A DNA stretch of 64,000 nt from an uncultured Chthonomonadaceae bacterium (GTDB lineage: Bacteria; Armatimonadota; Chthonomonadetes; Chthonomonadales; Chthonomonadaceae): positions 480,001 through 544,000 of the forward strand of contig CAWFQB010000004.1 in assembly GCA_963817895.1 (NCBI GenBank), written 5' to 3'. The position numbers and the translations under genes are program-made. Shown one piece after another: positions 9,735 through 45,705 of this stretch (positions are counted from its first letter, which is position 1; each line of letters begins with the position of its first letter). The notes under the pieces are model-generated. The model searched no databases and was not told the DNA's origin. It saw only the letters and a list, made by a program, of their open reading frames with translations.

Positions 9735-10667
9735 ATGCGCTGCCTTGCCGGGTTCCTGCTGCTGATACTGCTGTTGCTTTTTGCCGGGTGCGGGGGCAAC
9801 TTAGGCGCTCCGACCGGGCTTGTCGCCGCAACGGTGACGTTTACCGCAACCGTTCCGCCAATGCCCTCCCCGCAACCCAAATCGGTGCAACTGGCGATTG
9901 CGAAAGCGAACCTGAACGGCTCCGATTTCACGGTCACGCAGAATATCAATCCCACCAACGGCGGCATGTTTCCCGTTCCCGCGGACGGACACCCGCTTGG
10001 CCCCCTGCGTCCCATCACGACCACGCTGAGTTCACGCTTTTATTCCGGGCCGGATGCCAGCGGCGACGTGATTTCCAGCGCGAATGTACCCATTACGCTT
10101 CATTCCGGCCCCAACCAGTTCGGTTTCGCTTCCAATGCCGCTGTCGCGTCCATTGCCCTCGTTCCCGATCAATCGCTTGTTCTGGGACAGTCTCGCGCCC
10201 TCGATGCTATTTTGCGGGACAAGGACGGCAACTACGTGGCGGTTCCCGGCAGCCAGATCAGTTTTACGGTTACGCAGGGACAGGATGTGGTTCAGGCCGT
10301 CAACAACAACACGCAGCTGAAGGGCCTGAAACTCGGAACCGCGACCGTAACAATCACCGCGCAGGGTCTGACCAGCGCGCCGGGTACGGTTCAGGTGGTG
10401 GCGGGCGTGTTCATCAATCCGACAAGCGCGTCTGTCGCGCCCGGAGCGCAGCAGACGTTTACGGCCAGCCAGCCCGTCGTGTGGAGCATTCAGGAGGGCG
10501 CGGCGGGCGGAACCATCGTCACCAACACCGACGGCTCGGCAACGTATACCGCCCCGGTCGGCGCGGGAACCTTCCACGTCGTTGCCACCAGTCAGGCCAA
10601 CTCCACGCAATCGGCGACGGCAGCGGTCACGGTGCAGTCCGGCACGGGCGGCTTCATTATTCAATAG
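9735..10667 (+). CDS. Lipoprotein with Ig-like domains (candidate anchor subunit)
   Basis: Lipobox LFAG-C, beta-rich domains, one WSIQEGAAGG repeat, C-terminus TVQSGTGGFIIQ. Confidence 0.8.
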   Translation: MRCLAGFLLLILLLLFAGCGGNLGAPTGLVAATVTFTATVPPMPSPQPKSVQLAIAKANLNGSDFTVTQNINPTNGGMFPVPADGHPLGPLRPITTTLSSRFYSGPDASGDVISSANVPITLHSGPNQFGFASNAAVASIALVPDQSLVLGQSRALDAILRDKDGNYVAVPGSQISFTVTQGQDVVQAVNNNTQLKGLKLGTATVTITAQGLTSAPGTVQVVAGVFINPTSASVAPGAQQTFTASQPVVWSIQEGAAGGTIVTNTDGSATYTAPVGAGTFHVVATSQANSTQSATAAVTVQSGTGGFIIQ

Positions 10668-10750
10668 CCGCCTGTACAGAATTTTTGAACCGCAAAGAAG
10701 CAAAGACAGCAAAGAAATAGCAAGGGAAGAAAAGCAAGGAAACAACGGTT

Positions 10751-12883
10751 ATGAAGCGCTTGATTGCCTGTATTCTTGTGGTTGGAATGGCGCTCCTGTT
10801 GAGTGGATGCGGCGGCGGGGGATCGGGGTCGAACGGCTCCTCATCCTCTACCACAGGCCGACAAACAGGACAGGCCACCTTTACCATCGCCTGGCCCACA
10901 TCCGGCAAACAGGCGGCCATCCAACCCGCCCCCGGTAAACCCGCGTCCCGCGTTTCGCGGGTGATACCGGATTCCGTCGCCAGCATCCGCATTACGATTA
11001 CAAACGGGGGTGTGATTGTCGGCGATAAACTGTTTCCGCGCCCATCACAGGGCGGGCAAACGAGCGCGGCTATCAGCGGCCTGCCTGCCGGTGTTCCGCT
11101 CACGGCAACGGTGTACGCTTTCCCCAACGCGGCGGGAACCGGCGTTCCGGTCGCGCAGGCGTCCATTCCCATTGCCATTGTCGCCAACCAGAACACGCAG
11201 GCTCCCACGATTACGCTCGACAGCGCGATTAACCATGTGGATGTGACGCCGGGTACGCTGCTTGCCGCCGGCCAAAGTGTTACGGTTTCTGCGGGCCAGA
11301 CCCTATCCCTTACAGTCGGGCAAACTCTTCCCCTTGTCGCCACCCCCCGCGACAGCTCCAACAACGTCGTGCTGATCGCGCCCGGCAATCTGACGTGGGC
11401 TTCCAACAATGCCGCCGTTGCGATTGACCCGGCTTCGGGCGTCATCACGGCGAAACAGCCCGGCGCGGCCAACATCGTGGCAACCGTGAAAGTGGCGAAC
11501 GGCGATCCCGGCATCGCGTCCCCCGCCTTTCCGGTTGTCGTCCATGTCAACATCGCCTTTAATCCCACTGCGGTTGTTATGACCATCGGGCAAAGCGTGA
11601 CCTTTTCCGCCACGCTCACGCCTGCGGGCAGTGGCGGCGTCACGTACAGCGTTCAGGAGGGGAGTTCGGGCGGCAGCGTCAACCCGTCTACGGGAGCCTA
11701 TACCGCCCCCGGCACAGCCGGAACGTACCACCTCGTAGCCACCAGTCAGGCCGATCCAAGCCAGAGCGCGACAGCAACTATCGTGGTGCAGGAAGCGGCT
11801 CACGCGGTTGTCACTGCCAGCCTGCAATTCGCCACCATCACGCCGCAAAGTTCTCTCACTCTTGCCGCGTCCGTGCAGGGCAAGACCAATACGGGCGTCG
11901 CGTGGAGCATACAGGAGGGCGCGGCGGGCGGAACCCTGACAGCCGATGCCAGCGGAACCGAAACCTACACCGCCTCGAACAACCCCGGCATTTATCACAT
12001 CGTCGCCACCAGTCAGGCCGATCCGTCGCAGGCAGCCGTATCCACGATTGTCGTTCAATTCGCGCCTGCCGCCATCTACTCCACCCTGAGCGCGGCCACT
12101 CTTGCCCCGCAAACAAATGTGACGCTGCGGGCCATTGTCGCCAACCAGACAAGTACGGGCGTGACGTATACCATTCAGGAGGGCAGCGCAGGCGGCATCC
12201 TGACCGCGAACCAGGACGGAACCGAAACCTATACCGCGCCGGGTACAGCAGGCACGTACCACATTGTCGCCACCAGTCAGGCCAATCCTTCGCTTGTGGC
12301 GGTTTCCACAATCACGGTTCTGGGCCAGGCGGGAGCCGCCATCCATCCGAACCTGACGGCTGCGATTGTGTTCCCGCAAAGCGCCCTGACGCTGCGAACT
12401 ATCGTGACCGGCTACGCGAATACGGGCGTGACCTATACCATTCAGGAGGGCGCGAGTGGCGGAACTCTGGTTGCGAACCCGGATGGAACTGAAACCTACA
12501 CGTCGCCGAACACGGCGGGAACCTATCACATCATGGCGGTCAGTCAGGCCGATAATACGCTTGTTGCTGTGATCCCGATCTCTGTAACGGGAAGCCAGTC
12601 AGCAGTGATTATCATTCCGCCCACAGTGACGCTTACCTTGCAGCAAACCACGTCGTTCTGCGCGGCTGTCGCCAATATGATCAACAATACGGTTACGTGG
12701 AGTATTCAGGAGGGCGCGAGTGGGGGCGCGTTGTCAGGGCAGGCGGGCAACACAACCAACTATACGGCTCCCACCACGCCGGGAACCTATCACCTGATTG
12801 CCACCAGCCAGGCGAACGGGGCATTGCAGGCAACCGCAACAATCACAGTGAAAGCGGGCGCGCTCAACGTCACGGTAAATTAG
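10751..12883 (+). CDS. Lipoprotein with N-terminal beta domain, Big_2-like domain and five tandem Ig-like repeats (candidate stalk subunit)
   Basis: Lipobox LLSG-C, ATFTIAWP..SRVIP, five repeats of about 88 aa containing QEGxxGG..YTAP..GTYH.VATSQA, C-terminus TVKAGALNVTVN. Confidence 0.85.
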   Translation: MKRLIACILVVGMALLLSGCGGGGSGSNGSSSSTTGRQTGQATFTIAWPTSGKQAAIQPAPGKPASRVSRVIPDSVASIRITITNGGVIVGDKLFPRPSQGGQTSAAISGLPAGVPLTATVYAFPNAAGTGVPVAQASIPIAIVANQNTQAPTITLDSAINHVDVTPGTLLAAGQSVTVSAGQTLSLTVGQTLPLVATPRDSSNNVVLIAPGNLTWASNNAAVAIDPASGVITAKQPGAANIVATVKVANGDPGIASPAFPVVVHVNIAFNPTAVVMTIGQSVTFSATLTPAGSGGVTYSVQEGSSGGSVNPSTGAYTAPGTAGTYHLVATSQADPSQSATATIVVQEAAHAVVTASLQFATITPQSSLTLAASVQGKTNTGVAWSIQEGAAGGTLTADASGTETYTASNNPGIYHIVATSQADPSQAAVSTIVVQFAPAAIYSTLSAATLAPQTNVTLRAIVANQTSTGVTYTIQEGSAGGILTANQDGTETYTAPGTAGTYHIVATSQANPSLVAVSTITVLGQAGAAIHPNLTAAIVFPQSALTLRTIVTGYANTGVTYTIQEGASGGTLVANPDGTETYTSPNTAGTYHIMAVSQADNTLVAVIPISVTGSQSAVIIIPPTVTLTLQQTTSFCAAVANMINNTVTWSIQEGASGGALSGQAGNTTNYTAPTTPGTYHLIATSQANGALQATATITVKAGALNVTVN

Positions 12884-12896
12884 GAGCAACACGTTT

Positions 12897-14561
12897 ATGC
12901 GCGGTTTAACACAATCTATCTCCATGGCTCTGCTTCTGCCGCTTGCCGTATTTCTGTGCGGATGCGGCGGCGGAGCGGGCAAAAACGCGCTTGCCGGGGC
13001 GGGGCGCAAGGGCGGCAAGGGCAAGCTGACCGTAACCTTCAAATGGCCCACGCCCGCAAAGGCGGCAAAACGCCATCGCTTTATTCCGCTCGCGTCCATG
13101 AGCGTAGTTGTCAGCGTAAACGGGCCGACCGGCTACACGGCCACCTCCCCGCCCCTGACGCCAACCGGCAGCGGGGTGGGCGCGACAAGCACGTATACTT
13201 TCAATACCGTTCCCACCGGCACGATTGCGGTGACATCCAAAGCGTTTCCCAACCCGGATGGAACCGGAACCGCGCAGGCCGGCGCGACCAATCCCAACGT
13301 CACCATTCAGGCCGATCAGACTGCTAATCTGAATCTGACAATGGACACCACCATTGATAACGGTCACACGACGATTACCGGGTTAGGCCAACTAACGCGG
13401 ACGCGCGCTTCCAATTACACCGTCATCTTTCAGGATGGCGGCGGCAACACGGTACTGGTGGCTCCCAATACCGTCACATGGGGTACGGATGACCCTACCA
13501 TCGCCCTGGTGACAGTGGTTTCCCCGGATGGATTGACAGCAGCCGTATCGGGCATTTCGGCGCGTGAAACCAACATTCACGCCATCTATCAGGAACCCGG
13601 CGAGGCGGCGCAGTTTCCCAACAACCCGAACCGCTCCGGCAATTTCGACCTGAAAGTTTTGCCCATCATCTATATCTGCGACAATGGCAACAACAACATC
13701 GTGGAAATAGATAACATCAACGGGGATAATCGCGCCACACTGCCCCCCTCCGGCGCAGGCTATGCGTTTTCGCAGCCGCAGGGTGTTGCTGTTGATTCCG
13801 TTGGTGGGGTGTACGTGGCGGATACGGGCAACAATCGCCTGGTTCGGATCAACAGGGCGGACGGTTCGGATTTAGTGTCCGTGTCAACCCTCAACGGCAG
13901 GAACCTCAATACGCCGACCGCCGTTGCCATTGATAACAGCGACAACATCTATATACTGGACGACGGCAATTCCCGCGTAGTACAGTGTACCTACACCCCG
14001 AACAACTCGATCAATTTCGTACAGGAGTGGCCCATCAGTTCCGGGCTATTTCACAATGCCCTGACCTCTACGGACCCCGGAACGTTCACGTATACTGAAG
14101 TCCTTACGAGCCGCGCCAATGGCCCCTCACCCGCTATCGTTCAATTCGACGGCTCGGCTTCCAGCGTTTTCCACGGGCAGGGCGTGGTTGCGCTGAAATT
14201 TCCCTGGGGCGTTGTCAACAACTCCGGCAGCCTGATTGTGGCCGACCGGGACGGCAACCAACTGCTTCAACTGGACGGGCAAGGCAGCAGCAACGGCATT
14301 ATCAACTTCGATACCATCACCGTCGCTTCCCGCCTCAACTCGTTCAATAATATCGCGCTGAACGCGCCTCGCGGACTCGCGGCGGACGGCTACAGCAACC
14401 TGTATATCGCGGACACGGGAAACCAACGCATCATCCAGAACTCCAATTTTATCCGCCTGGGGCTGTTTTCTTCCTCTCCCACGTATACCCCGTCCGGCGG
14501 TTCTGCGCTGAACGCTCCCTACGCCGTAGCCGTAGACCCGCCGGAACCGCCACGATTTTAA
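12897..14561 (+). CDS. Lipoprotein with homologous N-terminal beta domain and C-terminal NHL propeller (candidate tip adhesin)
   Basis: Lipobox FLCG-C, LTVTFKWP..HRFIP, NHL motifs PQGVAVD..YVADTGNNR and PRGLAAD..YIADTGNQR. Confidence 0.85.
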   Translation: MRGLTQSISMALLLPLAVFLCGCGGGAGKNALAGAGRKGGKGKLTVTFKWPTPAKAAKRHRFIPLASMSVVVSVNGPTGYTATSPPLTPTGSGVGATSTYTFNTVPTGTIAVTSKAFPNPDGTGTAQAGATNPNVTIQADQTANLNLTMDTTIDNGHTTITGLGQLTRTRASNYTVIFQDGGGNTVLVAPNTVTWGTDDPTIALVTVVSPDGLTAAVSGISARETNIHAIYQEPGEAAQFPNNPNRSGNFDLKVLPIIYICDNGNNNIVEIDNINGDNRATLPPSGAGYAFSQPQGVAVDSVGGVYVADTGNNRLVRINRADGSDLVSVSTLNGRNLNTPTAVAIDNSDNIYILDDGNSRVVQCTYTPNNSINFVQEWPISSGLFHNALTSTDPGTFTYTEVLTSRANGPSPAIVQFDGSASSVFHGQGVVALKFPWGVVNNSGSLIVADRDGNQLLQLDGQGSSNGIINFDTITVASRLNSFNNIALNAPRGLAADGYSNLYIADTGNQRIIQNSNFIRLGLFSSSPTYTPSGGSALNAPYAVAVDPPEPPRF

Positions 14562-14658
14562 AGGTATCAGGTATCAGGTGTCAGGTGGCCTGATTTTTCC
14601 CGATTATCGCGGTTAAGATAATGAGGATCATGTACTGACACCTGATACCTGATACCTT
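14561..14658. repeat. 24-bp perfect inverted repeat of heptamers (AGGTATC)
   Basis: aaggtatcaggtatcaggtgtcag 14561-14584 versus ctgacacctgatacctgatacctt 14635-14658. Confidence 0.8.
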
Positions 14659-14676
14659 CCTTAAAGGAGACATGCC

Positions 14677-15342
14677 TTGCAGCGCAAACAGGGTTTACAC
14701 ATATTGGCGATGCTGATGCTTTGCCTGGGGCTTGCTCCCGCCGCGCGCGCGCAATTTGCCGGCGGCAGCGCGCTTGTCCGATTTGACGCGACGCGCAAAG
14801 AGCAAACAAGAGTATATGGCGCATTCGACGTTTATCCGTTTGCGCCGTTTACCACTGGTGGCAATTTTGCGAATGGTTCTTCCGGCACACAGACGAATTT
14901 CGGCGCGCTCATTGCGACCAACATCGGAATCAAACCGGCGAAATCGCGCAATGCCGTGGAAGTTGGGGGCTGGTTTTGGACGCGGGGCGGTTCCAGTCTG
15001 AGCCAATACCATATACGGGGATTTTTCACGCCCGAATTCGGCGTTCAATTCAGCTATTTGCAATCCTCGCGCGCTCCCGGCGCGGCATACACGGCGTTTT
15101 TTGTTTATGACCTGCTTTCCACCCGCGTCAATCCGCAGTCCACGCGCCACTGGTCTATTGAAGGCGGTCTGGGCGGCTTCTTCGATCTTGCGGCGGGACG
15201 CAGCACGTCTTCCGTCACCATGTACGTGCAGGGCAGCTACCAATTGGTCGGCAATCTCAGCGCCAATGCCGGTATCTGGTATCTGCGCGACCGCTCCGAC
15301 GACCTGAACCGCTTTACCGTTGGCTTAGGGTACAATTTCTGA
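14677..15342 (+). CDS. Small outer-membrane beta-barrel protein
   Basis: AAAGGAG RBS, Sec signal ending ARA-Q, alternating aromatic and Gly strands, C-terminal beta-signal FTVGLGYNF. Confidence 0.75.
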   Translation: MQRKQGLHILAMLMLCLGLAPAARAQFAGGSALVRFDATRKEQTRVYGAFDVYPFAPFTTGGNFANGSSGTQTNFGALIATNIGIKPAKSRNAVEVGGWFWTRGGSSLSQYHIRGFFTPEFGVQFSYLQSSRAPGAAYTAFFVYDLLSTRVNPQSTRHWSIEGGLGGFFDLAAGRSTSSVTMYVQGSYQLVGNLSANAGIWYLRDRSDDLNRFTVGLGYNF

Positions 15343-15349
15343 AATTCTT

Positions 15350-15512
15350 GTTAGCCGCGAATGAACGCGAATAAACGCAAATGAGAGACAAAAATATTCA
15401 ACGCTGTTTGCTGCCCTATGTTTTTTTTGCAGCCCGCTATATTTATACGTGGATGCTGACTGTTTGTAACACTCGGCCCATTCGCGTGTATTCGCGTGTA
15501 TTCGCGGCTAAC
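15350..15512. repeat. REP-like imperfect inverted repeat (GCCGCGAAT family)
   Basis: gttagccgcgaatgaacgcgaataaacgcaaatg versus cattcgcgtgtattcgcgtgtattcgcggctaac. Confidence 0.7.
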
Positions 15513-18500
15513 CTTGCATTTTTCCTCTGCTTCACTCTGGCAAACGCGGCGTGGAGTGACGAGGCTCCGATTCTGCGCGTCAATCCGGGCGGGCATACCG
15601 CGCAGGTGCGGGCGGTGCAGTTCACGCCGGATGGACAGCAGTTGATTTCCGCCGGGTTCGACAAAGTGGCGCGGGTCTGGAATTTGCGGACGGGGCGGCA
15701 AAGCGCGATACGGTTTCAGATCGGGCCGGATTTGGACGGGGCCGTAAAATCCGCGGTGATTTCCCCCGACTCGGCTTCGCATCTGCTCGCGCTGGGCCTG
15801 ACGAGTTCGCACGGCAACATTCTGCTGCTGGATTACACAACGGGCAAACTGGTCGGCAAACTGAGCGGCCACGCGGCCCGCATCCAGACCGCGCATGGCG
15901 ATATTCTGAATACCATCACGGGCCTTGCGTTCTCGGGTGACGGCAAAACGCTGGCATCGTGCGACACGGACGGAACTGTTCGATTGTGGGACGTTGCCGG
16001 ACAGAAATCGCTGCACGAGTGGTCATTAAAGGATCGGCAATCCCGCCCGTATCTTGCCGGGATCGCCCTTTCGCCGGACGGTTCGCAGCTTGCGGTCGCC
16101 AGCAATCATGAAACAACCCGCAACGCTTTCAGCGGGGATGTGCTTGTGTGGGACACGCATACTTTCAAGCAGACGCAAAAATGGCAGTGGCGCGATTTAA
16201 TCAACTGTATTGCCTGGTCGTCGCAGAACGCGCTCGCGTTCGGCAGCCGGGACGGAACCATTCAAATCTGGAACGCCCGAACCGCTTCCAAACCCGAACG
16301 CCTGCCCCGCCAGAAAGATACGGTTGTGTGCCTCGCGTTCAGCCCGGACGGGCGCGAACTGCTCAGTGGCGGTGGCGAAGGCGGGCAGGATTTGTCGGCA
16401 AGCGTATGGACCGGTCCCGATTTCCACCTTACCCGTACCTATCTCACTCATGCCGCGCCGATTTTCGCCTGCGCCCTTGCCCCGGACGGAGCGCAGGCTG
16501 CAACCGGCGATCTGTTCGGAACCATTCACGTCTGGAAAACCGATACCGGTGATGAAGTTCGCGCTTTGCAGGGAACCGGCAAGCCTGTGTTCGCCGTCGC
16601 CTGGTCGCCGGACAACGCGCAGGTCGCCTGGAACACGACGTTCAAAAGCGCGAAACTGGAAGCCGGGTTCGATCTGTCCCGCGCCGTACCCGCCGATGCG
16701 TTCGACCCGACGCTGCCCTGGAAGGGTGGGGAAACGCAGGGCGCGGGCGGTCAAATCAACATCGCTTTCGACAACGCCAGCCTGACAATGGGGGAGAAAC
16801 CCGGCGGCAAGGGCGGCAACCCGAAGCGTATTTCCGCGCAAACCGGCGATCTGTTCCGTTGCGCCACATATGCCCCGGAAGGCGGCGTAATTGTCGGCTC
16901 GGATCAGTATCTCGCGCTGTACGCCAAACCGGACGGCCCGCCCACGCGCCTGTTTGAGGGACACGAAGGCCCCGTCACTGCGGTTGCCGTTTCACCCAAC
17001 GGCAAATTTCTGGCCTCCGCTTCGATGGATCAGACCGTTCGCGTCTGGAGTCTCGACCCCAAAGACGAGGTTGTCGTTCTTGGGCGGCGCGTTGTCCGTC
17101 CCCTGCTGTCCATTTTTCAGGCCAACGACGATGATTGGGTGGCATGGACGCCGCAGGGGTATTACAACGCTTCGGCAACGGGCGACCGCTTGATCGGCTG
17201 GCACGTCAATCACGGCCTGGACAAACTGCCCGACTACTATTCCGCCGACCGGTTCGCGCCCCTGCTGTACCGCCCGGACATCATCTTTTACCAGTTCAAA
17301 ACTGGCAGCCTTGTCGAAGCCTTGCAGGAAGCGGACAAGGCGCGGGGCAAGCAGACCGTTGCCTACGACATCAATCAGGATTTAACCCGCCTCGCCCCGC
17401 GTCCCGTCGCGATTCAGTTTCCCGCCGAAGGCAGCGCTGTAGACAGCCCGGAACTGATAATAGGCGTGAAGTACGAGGGCAACGCGCAGAAAAGCGTCAG
17501 CGTGGGCGCGGTCGTGCTGGAAGCGCCAAGCGCGCGCAGCGTTGTCGAAGTGGATGCGGGCGCGGCGGCTAACGGGCAGAAACTCACAGTTCCCCTTGTG
17601 CCGGGACGCAACACGATTCGCGTTTATGCCGTCAATGCGCAGGGGGTGCGCGGCCTGGCTTCGGAACTACACGTCACCTACAACGCGCCCGCCGGTGAAG
17701 AATCCGGCCCGCATTTCGACACGCTGCATCTGCTGACAGTGGGCATCGGCAAATTCCCGAAACTGGATGAAAAGTGGCAGTTAGGGTACACCACGCAGGA
17801 CGCCAAAGCCGTAGACGCCCTGTACCGCGCCCAACAGGACAAACTGTTCAGCCATGTAGACGCGAAATCCCTGCTGGATTCAGAAGCGACGGGCGACAAC
17901 ATCATGCGATCCATCGAAGACCTGAGCAAACAGGTCGGCAAAAAGAAGCGCGATTTCGTTGTCTTGTTCGTCTCCTCGCACGGTTTTCCCGGCGGCCCGG
18001 ACAAAACCTCGCTGTTCTTCGCGCCCTCCAACCTTGACGCTTCCAGTCAGGCGAAGATGGAGGAAACGGGCGTGGCGTGGAACAAGATCATCGAACAGTT
18101 AAAGCAGCTCCCCTGCCCCGTTCTGCTGCTGATTGACACCTGCCATTCCGGGGGCGTAGGCATTGAACTGTTCCGCTCGTTCGACCCGGTAAAAGGGCGC
18201 GGATTCGACCCGCGCCGCGAAGCCATCCGAGAAGCGACGGAAAGCGGCCTGTACGTCCTGTCCGCCTGCCGCCCCACCGAGCAGAGCCTGGAAACCGAAG
18301 CGTGGATGCACGGCGCGTTCACCAAAGCGTTTCTGGAAATGGGGCAGGCGCAAAATAAAGCCCGCGTAGACCCGGACGGCGTGATTATCTTCCGCAACGC
18401 CTTCGACTACGTGTTCAACCGCGTCCGCGAACTCGTCGCCCCCGGCAAGCAAAGCCCCAAACTCTACGAACCGCTCGACTCCGCCGGCGACCTACCCTTG

Positions 18501-18515
18501 CTGAAAGTGCGCTGA
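15453..18515 (+). CDS. Secreted WD40-repeat protein with C-terminal caspase-family (C14) peptidase domain; start uncertain
   Basis: GH..WD repeats, DWVAWTPQGYY, catalytic SSHG and DTCHSG motifs, HGAFT; signal-like N-terminus. Confidence 0.85.
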   Translation: MLTVCNTRPIRVYSRVFAANLAFFLCFTLANAAWSDEAPILRVNPGGHTAQVRAVQFTPDGQQLISAGFDKVARVWNLRTGRQSAIRFQIGPDLDGAVKSAVISPDSASHLLALGLTSSHGNILLLDYTTGKLVGKLSGHAARIQTAHGDILNTITGLAFSGDGKTLASCDTDGTVRLWDVAGQKSLHEWSLKDRQSRPYLAGIALSPDGSQLAVASNHETTRNAFSGDVLVWDTHTFKQTQKWQWRDLINCIAWSSQNALAFGSRDGTIQIWNARTASKPERLPRQKDTVVCLAFSPDGRELLSGGGEGGQDLSASVWTGPDFHLTRTYLTHAAPIFACALAPDGAQAATGDLFGTIHVWKTDTGDEVRALQGTGKPVFAVAWSPDNAQVAWNTTFKSAKLEAGFDLSRAVPADAFDPTLPWKGGETQGAGGQINIAFDNASLTMGEKPGGKGGNPKRISAQTGDLFRCATYAPEGGVIVGSDQYLALYAKPDGPPTRLFEGHEGPVTAVAVSPNGKFLASASMDQTVRVWSLDPKDEVVVLGRRVVRPLLSIFQANDDDWVAWTPQGYYNASATGDRLIGWHVNHGLDKLPDYYSADRFAPLLYRPDIIFYQFKTGSLVEALQEADKARGKQTVAYDINQDLTRLAPRPVAIQFPAEGSAVDSPELIIGVKYEGNAQKSVSVGAVVLEAPSARSVVEVDAGAAANGQKLTVPLVPGRNTIRVYAVNAQGVRGLASELHVTYNAPAGEESGPHFDTLHLLTVGIGKFPKLDEKWQLGYTTQDAKAVDALYRAQQDKLFSHVDAKSLLDSEATGDNIMRSIEDLSKQVGKKKRDFVVLFVSSHGFPGGPDKTSLFFAPSNLDASSQAKMEETGVAWNKIIEQLKQLPCPVLLLIDTCHSGGVGIELFRSFDPVKGRGFDPRREAIREATESGLYVLSACRPTEQSLETEAWMHGAFTKAFLEMGQAQNKARVDPDGVIIFRNAFDYVFNRVRELVAPGKQSPKLYEPLDSAGDLPLLKVR

Positions 18516-43624: not shown

Positions 43625-43648
43625 GGACACAACATGTTGTGTCCCTAC
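43625..43648. repeat. Single GTAG-family REP
   Basis: GGACACAACATGTTGTGTCCCTAC. Confidence 0.75.
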
Positions 43649-43695
43649 GTTCGGAACCTTACACTGTCTCAGATTCTAAAGGGAGATCATTACTG

Positions 43696-45705
43696 TTGAA
43701 AACATCGGCCCTGTTTGCTTCTCGTTTTCTCATCCTTTTGGCGTTATTGGCTTCAGGCGTTGGTTCCGCTTTGGCGCAGGGCAAGCCCAGACAGGCAACG
43801 CCGAAACAGGCTGCGTCAAAGCCGCCCGCAGCAAAACCCGTCGCGTCGAAAGCGGCGTGGACGCTGATGATTTATGAGGATGCCGATAATTCGCTCGAAA
43901 CTCCGCAAATGGCGAACGTCAAGGAGATGCTGCAAGTGGGCAGCAGCGAACAGGTACAGATCGTGATGCTGTGCGACCGCAGCCCGAAAAGCGTCCCGAA
44001 AGACCAGTACACGGACGAGGCTATTGGCGAATTGCCCGATTGGGCCGGGGCGAAACTGCTGCATGTGGAAAAAGGCAAACTGAAAGAACTGGCGGATTGG
44101 CACGAAACCAACATGGCGGATTCAGCCACCCTGCGCCGGTTTCTGGAAGCGGGCGCGAAAGCGTACCCTGCAGACCATTACGGCCTGATTATCGCCGATC
44201 ACGGTTCAGGATGGGAAGCGCTGTGCGTGGACGAGAGCAGCGGCGATAAGGTCATGAGCCTGCGCGATCTGCGGGCGGGATTGGAAGCGTTTACAGCCGC
44301 GCATGGCAAACTGGAAATGGTAGGATTGGATGCCTGCCTGATGGCGAGTTTTGAAACGGCGCAGGCTCTACAGCCGGTCGCGCATTACATGGTAGCGTCG
44401 GAAGAACTGGCTCCGGGGCGGGGCTGGAACTACGACGCGCTACTGAAAAAACTTGTTGAAACGCCAACAATGACGGGTTACGATCTGGGACGAACCATTG
44501 TAGATGCGTACACCATCCATTTTCGCGAATCCAAAGACCCCCTTGCGCAGTTTGAAGCGATGGGTACAACCCTTTCCGTGCTCGATTTGGAACAACTCCC
44601 CCTGCTTGTCAGCGCGATGAACGTGGCGGGAGATCGCTGTTCCAACGCGCTACGGGGCGGGCGTCCGGGCTGGATTAAAGTGGCGCGTTCGCGGGCGGCT
44701 TCCGAAGAATACGGCGCGTCGGGAGTGCGGGGCGAAGGCAGCGAGGAGGAGATGCACGACCTGATGGGCATCGCGCAATCGCTGGAAGCGTCGGGCGATC
44801 CCGCTGTGGCCGACGCGGGACGGCAGGTGGATGAGGCCATTCGCAAGGTAGTGCGTTATCTCATGCGCGGCCTTTGCCGTCCCCACGCGGGCGGCATCTC
44901 GGTGTATTTCCCCACAGATGGTATCACGCTGCAAGACGCGACGGGCGCGGCGTATCTGCATCGCACGTATGCCGGGGAGTGCCGCTGGATCAATTTTCTG
45001 AGTCTGTACTCCGTCGCCATCAACGACTTCGCGGAAAAACCCGTTCTGTTCCCCCTGAAATTTACCGGGAAAACAGCCTCGCTCAACAAACCCATTGAAA
45101 TTCTTTCTAAGACGGCTGATAAAGATGTAGACAAAGTCCACTTCCTGATGCTTGCCCATGACGGCCCGGATTTGCTTGTGATTGGACGCCTGCCCACCTT
45201 CGCCACGCCCGACGGCACGTTAGGGCAGCAGTTCAAGGGCTTATGGTTCATGTTGAGCGACAAGAAGCGGATTGTGACGTGTCCGATTACCTCGTTCGAG
45301 TCGCTGGACAGCAAGGGGACGCGCTATCTGGCCTACGTTCCCGCGCAAATCCGGCGGCGCGATACCGCCAAATGGATAGACGTGGAATTCACTTTTCTGA
45401 TAGACTCTCAGGGCAAAGCGCCGCACGGACAACTGCTGTATGCGTTTGCCGAAACCCCGCAGGGGCCACTGCAAATTCCGCTTTTGCCCGGTGATTCAAT
45501 TTTGCCCGTGTACACCCGTCTGACCGCCGAGGGCGGCATAAAGGACTGGACGGGCGGAGAAAAGGCCGCGATACATCTGGAGAATCCGGGCGATTTTACA
45601 CTGGGATGGGGCCAGATCAGCAAGGGCGCGTACCAACTCGGCTTTGAGGTAATTAATCTAGCGGGACTGCCTGCCGTGAAACTGGAAGATTTTATATTGG
45701 AGTAA
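43696..45705 (+). CDS. Secreted clostripain-family (C11) cysteine peptidase
   Basis: WTLMIY..ADN.LE, ADHGSGW (His), LDACLMA (Cys), ASEE..PG.GW.Y. Confidence 0.85.
   Translation: MKTSALFASRFLILLALLASGVGSALAQGKPRQATPKQAASKPPAAKPVASKAAWTLMIYEDADNSLETPQMANVKEMLQVGSSEQVQIVMLCDRSPKSVPKDQYTDEAIGELPDWAGAKLLHVEKGKLKELADWHETNMADSATLRRFLEAGAKAYPADHYGLIIADHGSGWEALCVDESSGDKVMSLRDLRAGLEAFTAAHGKLEMVGLDACLMASFETAQALQPVAHYMVASEELAPGRGWNYDALLKKLVETPTMTGYDLGRTIVDAYTIHFRESKDPLAQFEAMGTTLSVLDLEQLPLLVSAMNVAGDRCSNALRGGRPGWIKVARSRAASEEYGASGVRGEGSEEEMHDLMGIAQSLEASGDPAVADAGRQVDEAIRKVVRYLMRGLCRPHAGGISVYFPTDGITLQDATGAAYLHRTYAGECRWINFLSLYSVAINDFAEKPVLFPLKFTGKTASLNKPIEILSKTADKDVDKVHFLMLAHDGPDLLVIGRLPTFATPDGTLGQQFKGLWFMLSDKKRIVTCPITSFESLDSKGTRYLAYVPAQIRRRDTAKWIDVEFTFLIDSQGKAPHGQLLYAFAETPQGPLQIPLLPGDSILPVYTRLTAEGGIKDWTGGEKAAIHLENPGDFTLGWGQISKGAYQLGFEVINLAGLPAVKLEDFILE

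Follow-up and report, generated by a model that had tools for sequence, protein, structure and literature searches.

Do three neighbouring lipoprotein genes in an armatimonadotal genome encode independent surface proteins, or are they the parts of one chain? The genes, here called A, B and C, lie in a 64,000-nucleotide stretch of DNA (the window) from an uncultured Chthonomonadaceae bacterium (assembly GCA_963817895.1, contig CAWFQB010000004.1, positions 480,001 to 544,000 of the forward strand; all positions below are those of the window). An initial annotation had proposed that they form an anchor, a stalk and a tip, assembled in the manner of the type V pili of Bacteroidota. Our analysis favours, as the probable answer, a chain A-(B)n-C of lipidated subunits in which B and C would be cut at an Arg residue and the first strand so removed would be replaced by the C-terminal strand, or tail, of the upstream subunit.

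The three genes are all on the forward strand. A (9735..10667, 310 amino acids) consists of a divergent N-terminal domain (N-domain) without the Arg motif, a Big-like domain, one immunoglobulin (Ig) repeat and a donor-like C-terminal strand, and is the putative anchor. B (10751..12883, 710 amino acids), the candidate stalk or adaptor, has an N-domain of the family described below, a Big_2-like domain, five Ig repeats and a donor-like tail. C (12897..14561, 554 amino acids), the presumptive tip, has a family N-domain, a second Ig-like domain and an NHL propeller (Pfam NHL, E 2.8e-20), after which it ends with no tail. The Big_1/Big_2-type Pfam matches in the proteins of the locus are weak. Each protein has a signal peptide, a lipobox Cys (Cys19 in A, Cys20 in B and Cys23 in C) and a Gly linker, as had been noticed earlier; the signal peptides are hydrophobic, and lipidation is predicted from sequence. 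B and C share the proposed layout of a strand, W-P, a loop and then R-x-I-P. In B the first strand together with Trp48 (10868..10894, +), a strand in the predicted fold, is the putative removable anchor strand, and R70-V-I-P (10958..10969, +) is the predicted cleavage site; in C the predicted site is R61-F-I-P (13077-13088, +). The corresponding loop of A lacks an Arg, as claimed, but Lys49 sits just ahead of the next strand; neither Arg nor Lys occupies the position in A that matches R70 and R61.

The proposal that all three proteins share an N-terminal beta domain stood for B and C, whose N-domains are homologous (30% identity, alignment E 1e-7), and failed for A, which is not detectably in the family. 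A was not recruited in four rounds of iteration by a family profile built from 21 N-domains, its hhalign comparison with the family (probability 0.7%, E 0.078) amounts to a colinear motif resemblance only, a sequence search with its N-domain returned one near-identical protein and nothing else, and its single-sequence structure model was unusable (predicted local distance difference test score (pLDDT) 37.7). The profile matched proteins in 138 of 301 genomes of the phylum, some of the weaker matches being clostripain fusions, and at 50% identity the family falls into 2140 clusters. Members with a named source belong to Armatimonas and other Armatimonadota, and their annotations read hypothetical or Ig-like or refer to the cargo; members are on record for Armatimonas rosea, and a scan of named genomes gave at least two family loci among the matches listed. 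The N-domain had no Pfam, NCBIfam or pilin-family match and no sequence match in the PDB, a result that leaves room for remote homology, and an Atlas search with it returned unnamed clusters near 0.9 and named clusters all under 0.8. No description of the N-domain family was found in the literature within reach, which excluded subscription journals and preprint supplements.

The genome under study has 14 profile-positive frames, with clusters on contigs C1 (two), C2, C4 and C6, and several of its family genes are frameshifted in the assembly. On contig C2 of this genome a pair of N-domain genes (L080:5913-7789:+) has no clear R-x-I-P or tail. At another locus (L072:2255-10535:+) five highly divergent lipoproteins follow the same grammar ahead of a barrel gene and a WD40-C14 gene of the kinds described below; because most of these lipoproteins are barely detected by the profile, the family must exceed its counted size.

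The predicted cleavage site is conserved, as the chain would demand. Of 146 parsed relatives, 137 have Arg and 5 have Lys immediately before the cut, at P1 (142/146), within a loop of 2-30 residues; the 146 were parsed from the 150 best scorers to a profile that itself includes the motif, so that this figure is an upper estimate.

An AlphaFold2 model of the N-domain (73 sequences, pLDDT 76) predicts a seven-strand sandwich with the first strand within the fold, and the Arg loop that follows it has no secondary structure (pLDDT about 58). The neighbours found in a wide structural search are transthyretin-like and related sandwiches, and the modelled domain is itself transthyretin-like. Mfa3 matched with a Z score of 7.7 and a root mean square deviation of 3.3 over 98 aligned positions, and the FimA prepilin with 7.5 and 4.7 over 101; both alignments begin at the first strand. 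A Foldseek search with the model gave no match at E 0.001 or better. For the proposed exchange itself, the predicted complex of C trimmed after R61 with the last 90 residues of B scored 0.43, against 0.00 for the best of three controls, with contacts 100% concordant between runs and a partner pLDDT of at least 73. In calibration, 116 of 157 solved pairs and 2 of 215 mismatched pairs passed the mark used for such complexes, but scores of 0.60 or less accounted for only 18 of the passes among the solved pairs and for both among the mismatched ones. The modelled score of 0.43 thus lends weak support to strand exchange between B and C; it may also reflect likeness to solved strand-exchange complexes.

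The tails were scored with a matrix made from only the eight residues before W-P in relatives, and the threshold was set at the 95th percentile of 6166 open reading frame (ORF) ends of this genome. The tails of A (residues 303-310, 10641..10664, +) and B (residues 703-710, 12857..12880, +) do resemble the N-terminal strand of the family, scoring 2.9 and 3.4, respectively, and C has no such ending (-25.3); the 95th and 99th percentiles of the control are 0.1 and 3.9. Both C-termini follow the pattern G-x-x-x-hydrophobic-x-hydrophobic-Q/N.

The initial annotation had suggested a survey by profile and gene neighbourhood, and across the phylum the presence of a tail proved to depend on gene position. 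The survey covered 60 regions and the window, mostly the best and multi-hit places, and is hence biased towards clusters; six ORFs (a shadow frame, frameshift pieces, an open end and a duplicate) and two near-duplicate loci were excluded from the counts. Tails close 28 of 39 first genes and 9 of 14 middle genes, compared with 6 of 36 last genes and 4 of 19 single ones (first versus last, Fisher p 2e-6, which is overstated since kin are not independent). Lipoproteins with an Ig repeat and no N-domain match, collected with an Ig-repeat profile made without the tail columns, end in a tail in 15 of 15 cases; 14 of them are first in their cluster, and the fifteenth is the 3' part of a first gene broken by a frameshift. 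The tails keep a fixed register, 33 of 37 ending exactly at strand position 8, and their composition is that of the first-strand columns, with Gly at the start in 32 of 37 and Ile or Val at position 7 in 34 of 37. Tails also close 11 genes without this Ig repeat, after other domain types (two of these look doubtful). Three features of these loci are shown by the sequences themselves: signals typical of lipoproteins, an Arg conserved behind the first strand, and tails that occur on upstream genes and not on terminal ones.

Members without a tail carry varied cargo. Among the 28 scanned of 55 listed, 18 match Pfam, with types that include PQQ/BamB, PD40, lactonase, NHL and FG-GAP propellers, CBM6, FGE-sulfatase, CAP and di-haem peroxidase. 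No recurrent assembly or protease gene emerged when 64 of 105 picked flanking ORFs were compared with Pfam. Five tandem family genes at one locus (L035:5706-13223:+) include two that were scanned, both with an FGE-sulfatase-like domain; because the three middle genes end in tails, cargo-bearing stalks exist. Two tip-type members have haem endings, one matching di-haem cytochrome c peroxidase (L048:2563-4353:+) and the other with a CxxCH motif close to its end (L049:5331-6728:-), and their sequences suggest that redox proteins are displayed by such members.

Which enzyme would cut at the Arg? Two candidate maturases of clan CD are encoded, a C11 peptidase in this genome and a C14 peptidase in the operon, and their activity on A, B and C is putative. 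The former is a secreted clostripain-family peptidase, intact and unlinked to the locus (43639..45705, +). C11 enzymes cut after Arg or Lys (bioRxiv 10.1101/522870), a surface clostripain cleaves Bacteroides type V pilins, as stated in a review (PMC12632263), and fragipain, thetapain and iotapain of Bacteroides are C11 enzymes, mostly lipoproteins, that cut at Arg or Lys (PMC12632263; bioRxiv 10.1101/522870). Most C11 peptidases here are likewise lipoproteins; unlike the Bacteroides clostripains, some are fused to the acceptor domain, and their substrates are putative. C11 occurs in 199 of 301 genomes of the phylum. Its raw overlap with family-positive genomes (125/138) is partly circular because some weak N-domain matches are clostripain fusions; with strong family matches only (E 1e-25 or better), C11 is present in 45 of 50 genomes versus 199 of 301 overall, and the seven listed families without C11 (46 genomes) have no N-domain match either. 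The fusions are a more telling link than co-occurrence. The N-domain stands ahead of the clostripain in 11 of 55 C11 ORFs examined (L103:3906-5699:-, L122:2134-4491:+, L133:1356-3401:- and 8 more), with a full W-P..R-L-I-P in two and a tail in none, so the protease looks like tip cargo in them. The gingipain family, C25, was not found in 5 genomes in a search without a responding positive control.

In the chain as we propose it, all subunits would be lipidated and reach the outer face, and the cut before x-I-P would be made by a clan CD peptidase with specificity for Arg, for which a clostripain is the likeliest candidate and, in this genus, the WD40-caspase-like protein of the operon a possible one. 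The lipid-bearing first strand would then be displaced by the strand of 8 residues with which a subunit of the upstream type ends. C, an acceptor only, would cap the tip and display its NHL propeller; B, acceptor and donor with about seven Ig-type domains, would insert once or repeatedly; and A, a donor only, uncut and lipidated, would terminate and hold the chain. The product would be either an A-B-C trimer or an A-Bn-C fibre; its surface location, the cleavage, the exchange and the chain length are what we infer from the patterns above.

Several observations weigh against such a chain. The Z scores of Mfa3 and FimA are tied with those of unrelated beta-sandwiches (top 8.4, with Z under 8 common) and are at background level, and the complex score falls in the weak band with no interface returned, so that docking of the tail in the groove was not seen. 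The choice of the 150 representatives by a motif-containing profile inflates Arg conservation. Eleven of the 39 first genes are under the tail threshold and 6 of the 36 last genes are over it; Arg is kept in 19 of 24 first-position N-domain genes, so many clusters are without an evident uncut anchor. The family-level link to C11 on strong matches is not significant (9/10, p 0.21), and no clostripain was found in 19 genomes of family f29, whose operons are canonical. Nineteen family genes stand single, 15 of these without a tail, and two of the four internal linkers of B are tail-like (4.9 and 1.6, against 3.4 for its tail).

The last two observations would suit independent surface lipoproteins that form no chain, with R-x-I-P as a shedding or maturation site and the tail as a sorting signal or as the first strand left over from a truncated Ig repeat. 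C also has more basic residues ahead of its first strand, the clostripain fusions have an N-domain and no tail, and shedding has a precedent, in that surface clostripain, fragipain, releases many lipoproteins in B. fragilis, as the review describes (PMC12632263). We nevertheless regard this explanation as unlikely, for it leaves unexplained why cargo-less lipoproteins of Ig repeats plus tail lie just upstream of cargo genes (15/15), and it accounts neither for the fixed terminal register nor for tails after unrelated domains and the tail-less majority of terminal genes.

The tails might also pair without proteolysis, joining the edge of a sheet or displacing the first strand while the Arg binds the tail carboxylate and every subunit stays lipid-anchored, in which case a membrane-bound lattice or a small complex would result. 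The tails leave their free carboxylate at a constant position, x-I-P is conserved as strongly as the Arg among the representatives, and neither C11 nor C14 was found in 6 of the 138 family-positive genomes, which, with the operons of f29, would fit uncut pairing. However, the Arg sits in a loop of variable length that has no predicted structure, the tail copies the first-strand pattern, which fits replacement, and subunits that all stayed lipidated would have no need of an anchor with a lipid of its own. We consider uncut pairing quite improbable.

Downstream of C lie two further forward-strand genes, the first of which encodes a small protein with the features of an outer-membrane beta-barrel (14677..15342, 221 amino acids) and of no Pfam or NCBIfam family, and the second, absent from the initial annotation, a secreted WD40 plus caspase-like (Peptidase_C14) protein (15381..18515, 1044 amino acids). 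The spacers from A to B, B to C, C to the barrel gene and the barrel to the WD40-caspase gene are 83, 13, 115 and 38 bases, and the order of the five genes is retained in another genome of the same genus. The barrel had been put forward as an export or anchoring partner. We dropped such a role as a general one, since 7 of 301 genomes have the barrel and 138 have the family; the barrel accompanies the WD40-caspase gene, of which it appears to be the partner rather than a core part of the chain. Its Atlas neighbours include SlipAM and BBP2 clusters at 0.96, and because their shared counts are low we make no claim of a translocon. The Peptidase_C14 domain scores above its curated cut-off with His (SHG) and Cys (DTCH) intact, making the protein a locus-linked candidate maturase. 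We rejected C14 as the universal maturase, since it is present in only 65 of the 138 family-positive genomes and shows no link at the level of families (p 0.71).

A variant of the proposed chain, in which the barrel and the WD40-caspase-like protein form a dedicated export and maturation machine in this genus, is nonetheless conceivable, if rather doubtful. In three genomes of the genus, 6 of 6 cassettes of barrel and WD40-C14 genes lie immediately after family genes or a remnant with a tail, and the assembly breaks the lipoprotein C11 peptidase of this genome into three frames. The caspase domain has no significant PDB sequence match, so its Arg specificity is putative, proposed from Asp residues of the window protein at the Arg/Lys-binding positions of metacaspases. 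The narrow occurrence of the barrel and the patchy occurrence of C14 argue against the variant, as do three loci of other genera at which a barrel adjoins a C14 gene and no family gene was found in the DNA examined; near two further barrels neither was found. Ahead of one cassette, on contig C14 of this genome (L078:8061-8600:-), only a tail-like ending is left, which looks like the relic of a deleted cluster. In another family, a lipoprotein with a weak caspase-like match (L091:6859-8706:+; E 2e-6 to our own profile, no Pfam match) lies immediately 3' of a family gene.

Taken back to the chain, the division into anchor, stalk and tip and a type V-like mechanism gain from the conserved Arg, the positioned tails, the Ig-only anchors, the transthyretin-like fold, the weak docking and the presence of clan CD proteases. 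The word pilus may overstate the length, since many loci appear to hold just an anchor and a tip, or a lone tip, and long pili are therefore not assured. We take the unnamed phylum-wide system to be real; genomic data argue strongly, and structural data weakly, for its type V-like assembly. A broader view, which we hold to be evenly balanced between right and wrong, is of a phylum-wide plug-and-socket display in which an acceptor domain and an 8-residue plug, triggered at the Arg, would clip any cargo to anchors or stalks, be it adhesive propellers, carbohydrate-binding modules, haem proteins or even the clostripain maturase. The system would then be a minimal counterpart of type V pili, built separately, or an ancient relative of them, in a phylum remote from Bacteroidota. 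It would also be a candidate for the structure behind the fimbriae that Fimbriimonas is reported to have, which the genome paper assigns, without test, to type IV-like genes (PMC4072686).

How close is the likeness to type V pili? According to a 2026 paper, these pili are unique to Bacteroidia and consist of a FimA/Mfa1 stalk, a FimB/Mfa2 anchor and Mfa3-5 as adaptor and tip (PMC13655056). By analogy with that account the chain would work in the same way (PMC13655056; bioRxiv 10.1101/2024.11.15.621889): the precursors are predicted lipoproteins with the first strand after the lipid Cys in a domain modelled as transthyretin-like, an Arg lies in the loop following that strand, a clan CD protease is available, the C-terminal donor strand is on anchor and stalk and not on the tip, the anchor would be uncut, and the ends of the operons hold tip genes. 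Unlike the type V pilin, with its N-terminal plus C-terminal domain, the proteins here carry Big_2, Ig repeats or cargo behind a single acceptor domain, a layout judged from sequence matches, since the downstream domains were not reliably folded. The donor differs as well, being one 8-residue strand on unrelated domains, whereas that of Mfa1 comprises about 21 residues in two strands on its own C-terminal domain. Anchors here are often without an acceptor domain entirely (15 have no N-domain match), sequence searches found nothing similar among pilin families or PDB chains, and the host belongs to Armatimonadota. We have not filed the chain as a type V pilus because its domain layout and host class differ from those of the pilins and its N-terminal domain homology is at background level.

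Other donor-strand polymers, namely chaperone-usher pili, archaeal cannulae and Tat-fimbriae, resemble the proposed chain in that a strand of one subunit completes the fold of the next. The donor strand of chaperone-usher pili is N-terminal, and a chaperone and an usher are required. A lipid-anchored strand removed by a protease, as proposed here, is not described for any of these three in the portions of the literature compared. Invasin/intimin-like Big_1/Big_2 proteins share with this system, by weak Pfam matches, the stack of Ig-like domains ending in an adhesive domain; those proteins are single chains on a barrel, whereas here the stack is split among separately lipidated genes.

The mode of assembly has so far been described only in Bacteroidia, and it is proposed here from sequence patterns and weak structure predictions. 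If the proposal is right, protease-triggered strand exchange between lipoproteins would be a general building principle that works with far fewer parts. A function could then be given to a large family that has no name, and a phylum that has been little studied would have a candidate organelle for adhesion and display. Predictions at single-residue level are available for the cut sites and tails, and two proteases stand as candidates; on the same condition, a tag of 8 residues paired with an acceptor that a protease switches could make a useful tool for coupling proteins.

Some minor features of the genome and the window remain. Frameshift-split genes of this genome include tips, a barrel and the lipoprotein clostripain (C1:1633.7-1635.4k, C6:146.0-147.9k, C1:318.1-318.9k and C1:75-77k), through assembly errors or decay. 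A scan for promoters and terminators gave no signal above chance level. A perfect 24-nucleotide inverted repeat, for which strand does not apply, lies between C and the barrel gene (14561..14658). A second intergenic inverted repeat (15350-15512; 34 nucleotides, 88%) contains a 16-mer with 98 copies in the genome, which suggests an element like a repetitive extragenic palindrome (REP) or a miniature inverted-repeat transposable element (MITE). This repeat overlaps the apparent start of the WD40-caspase ORF, and the orthologue is without that extension; the true start probably lies downstream of 15381.

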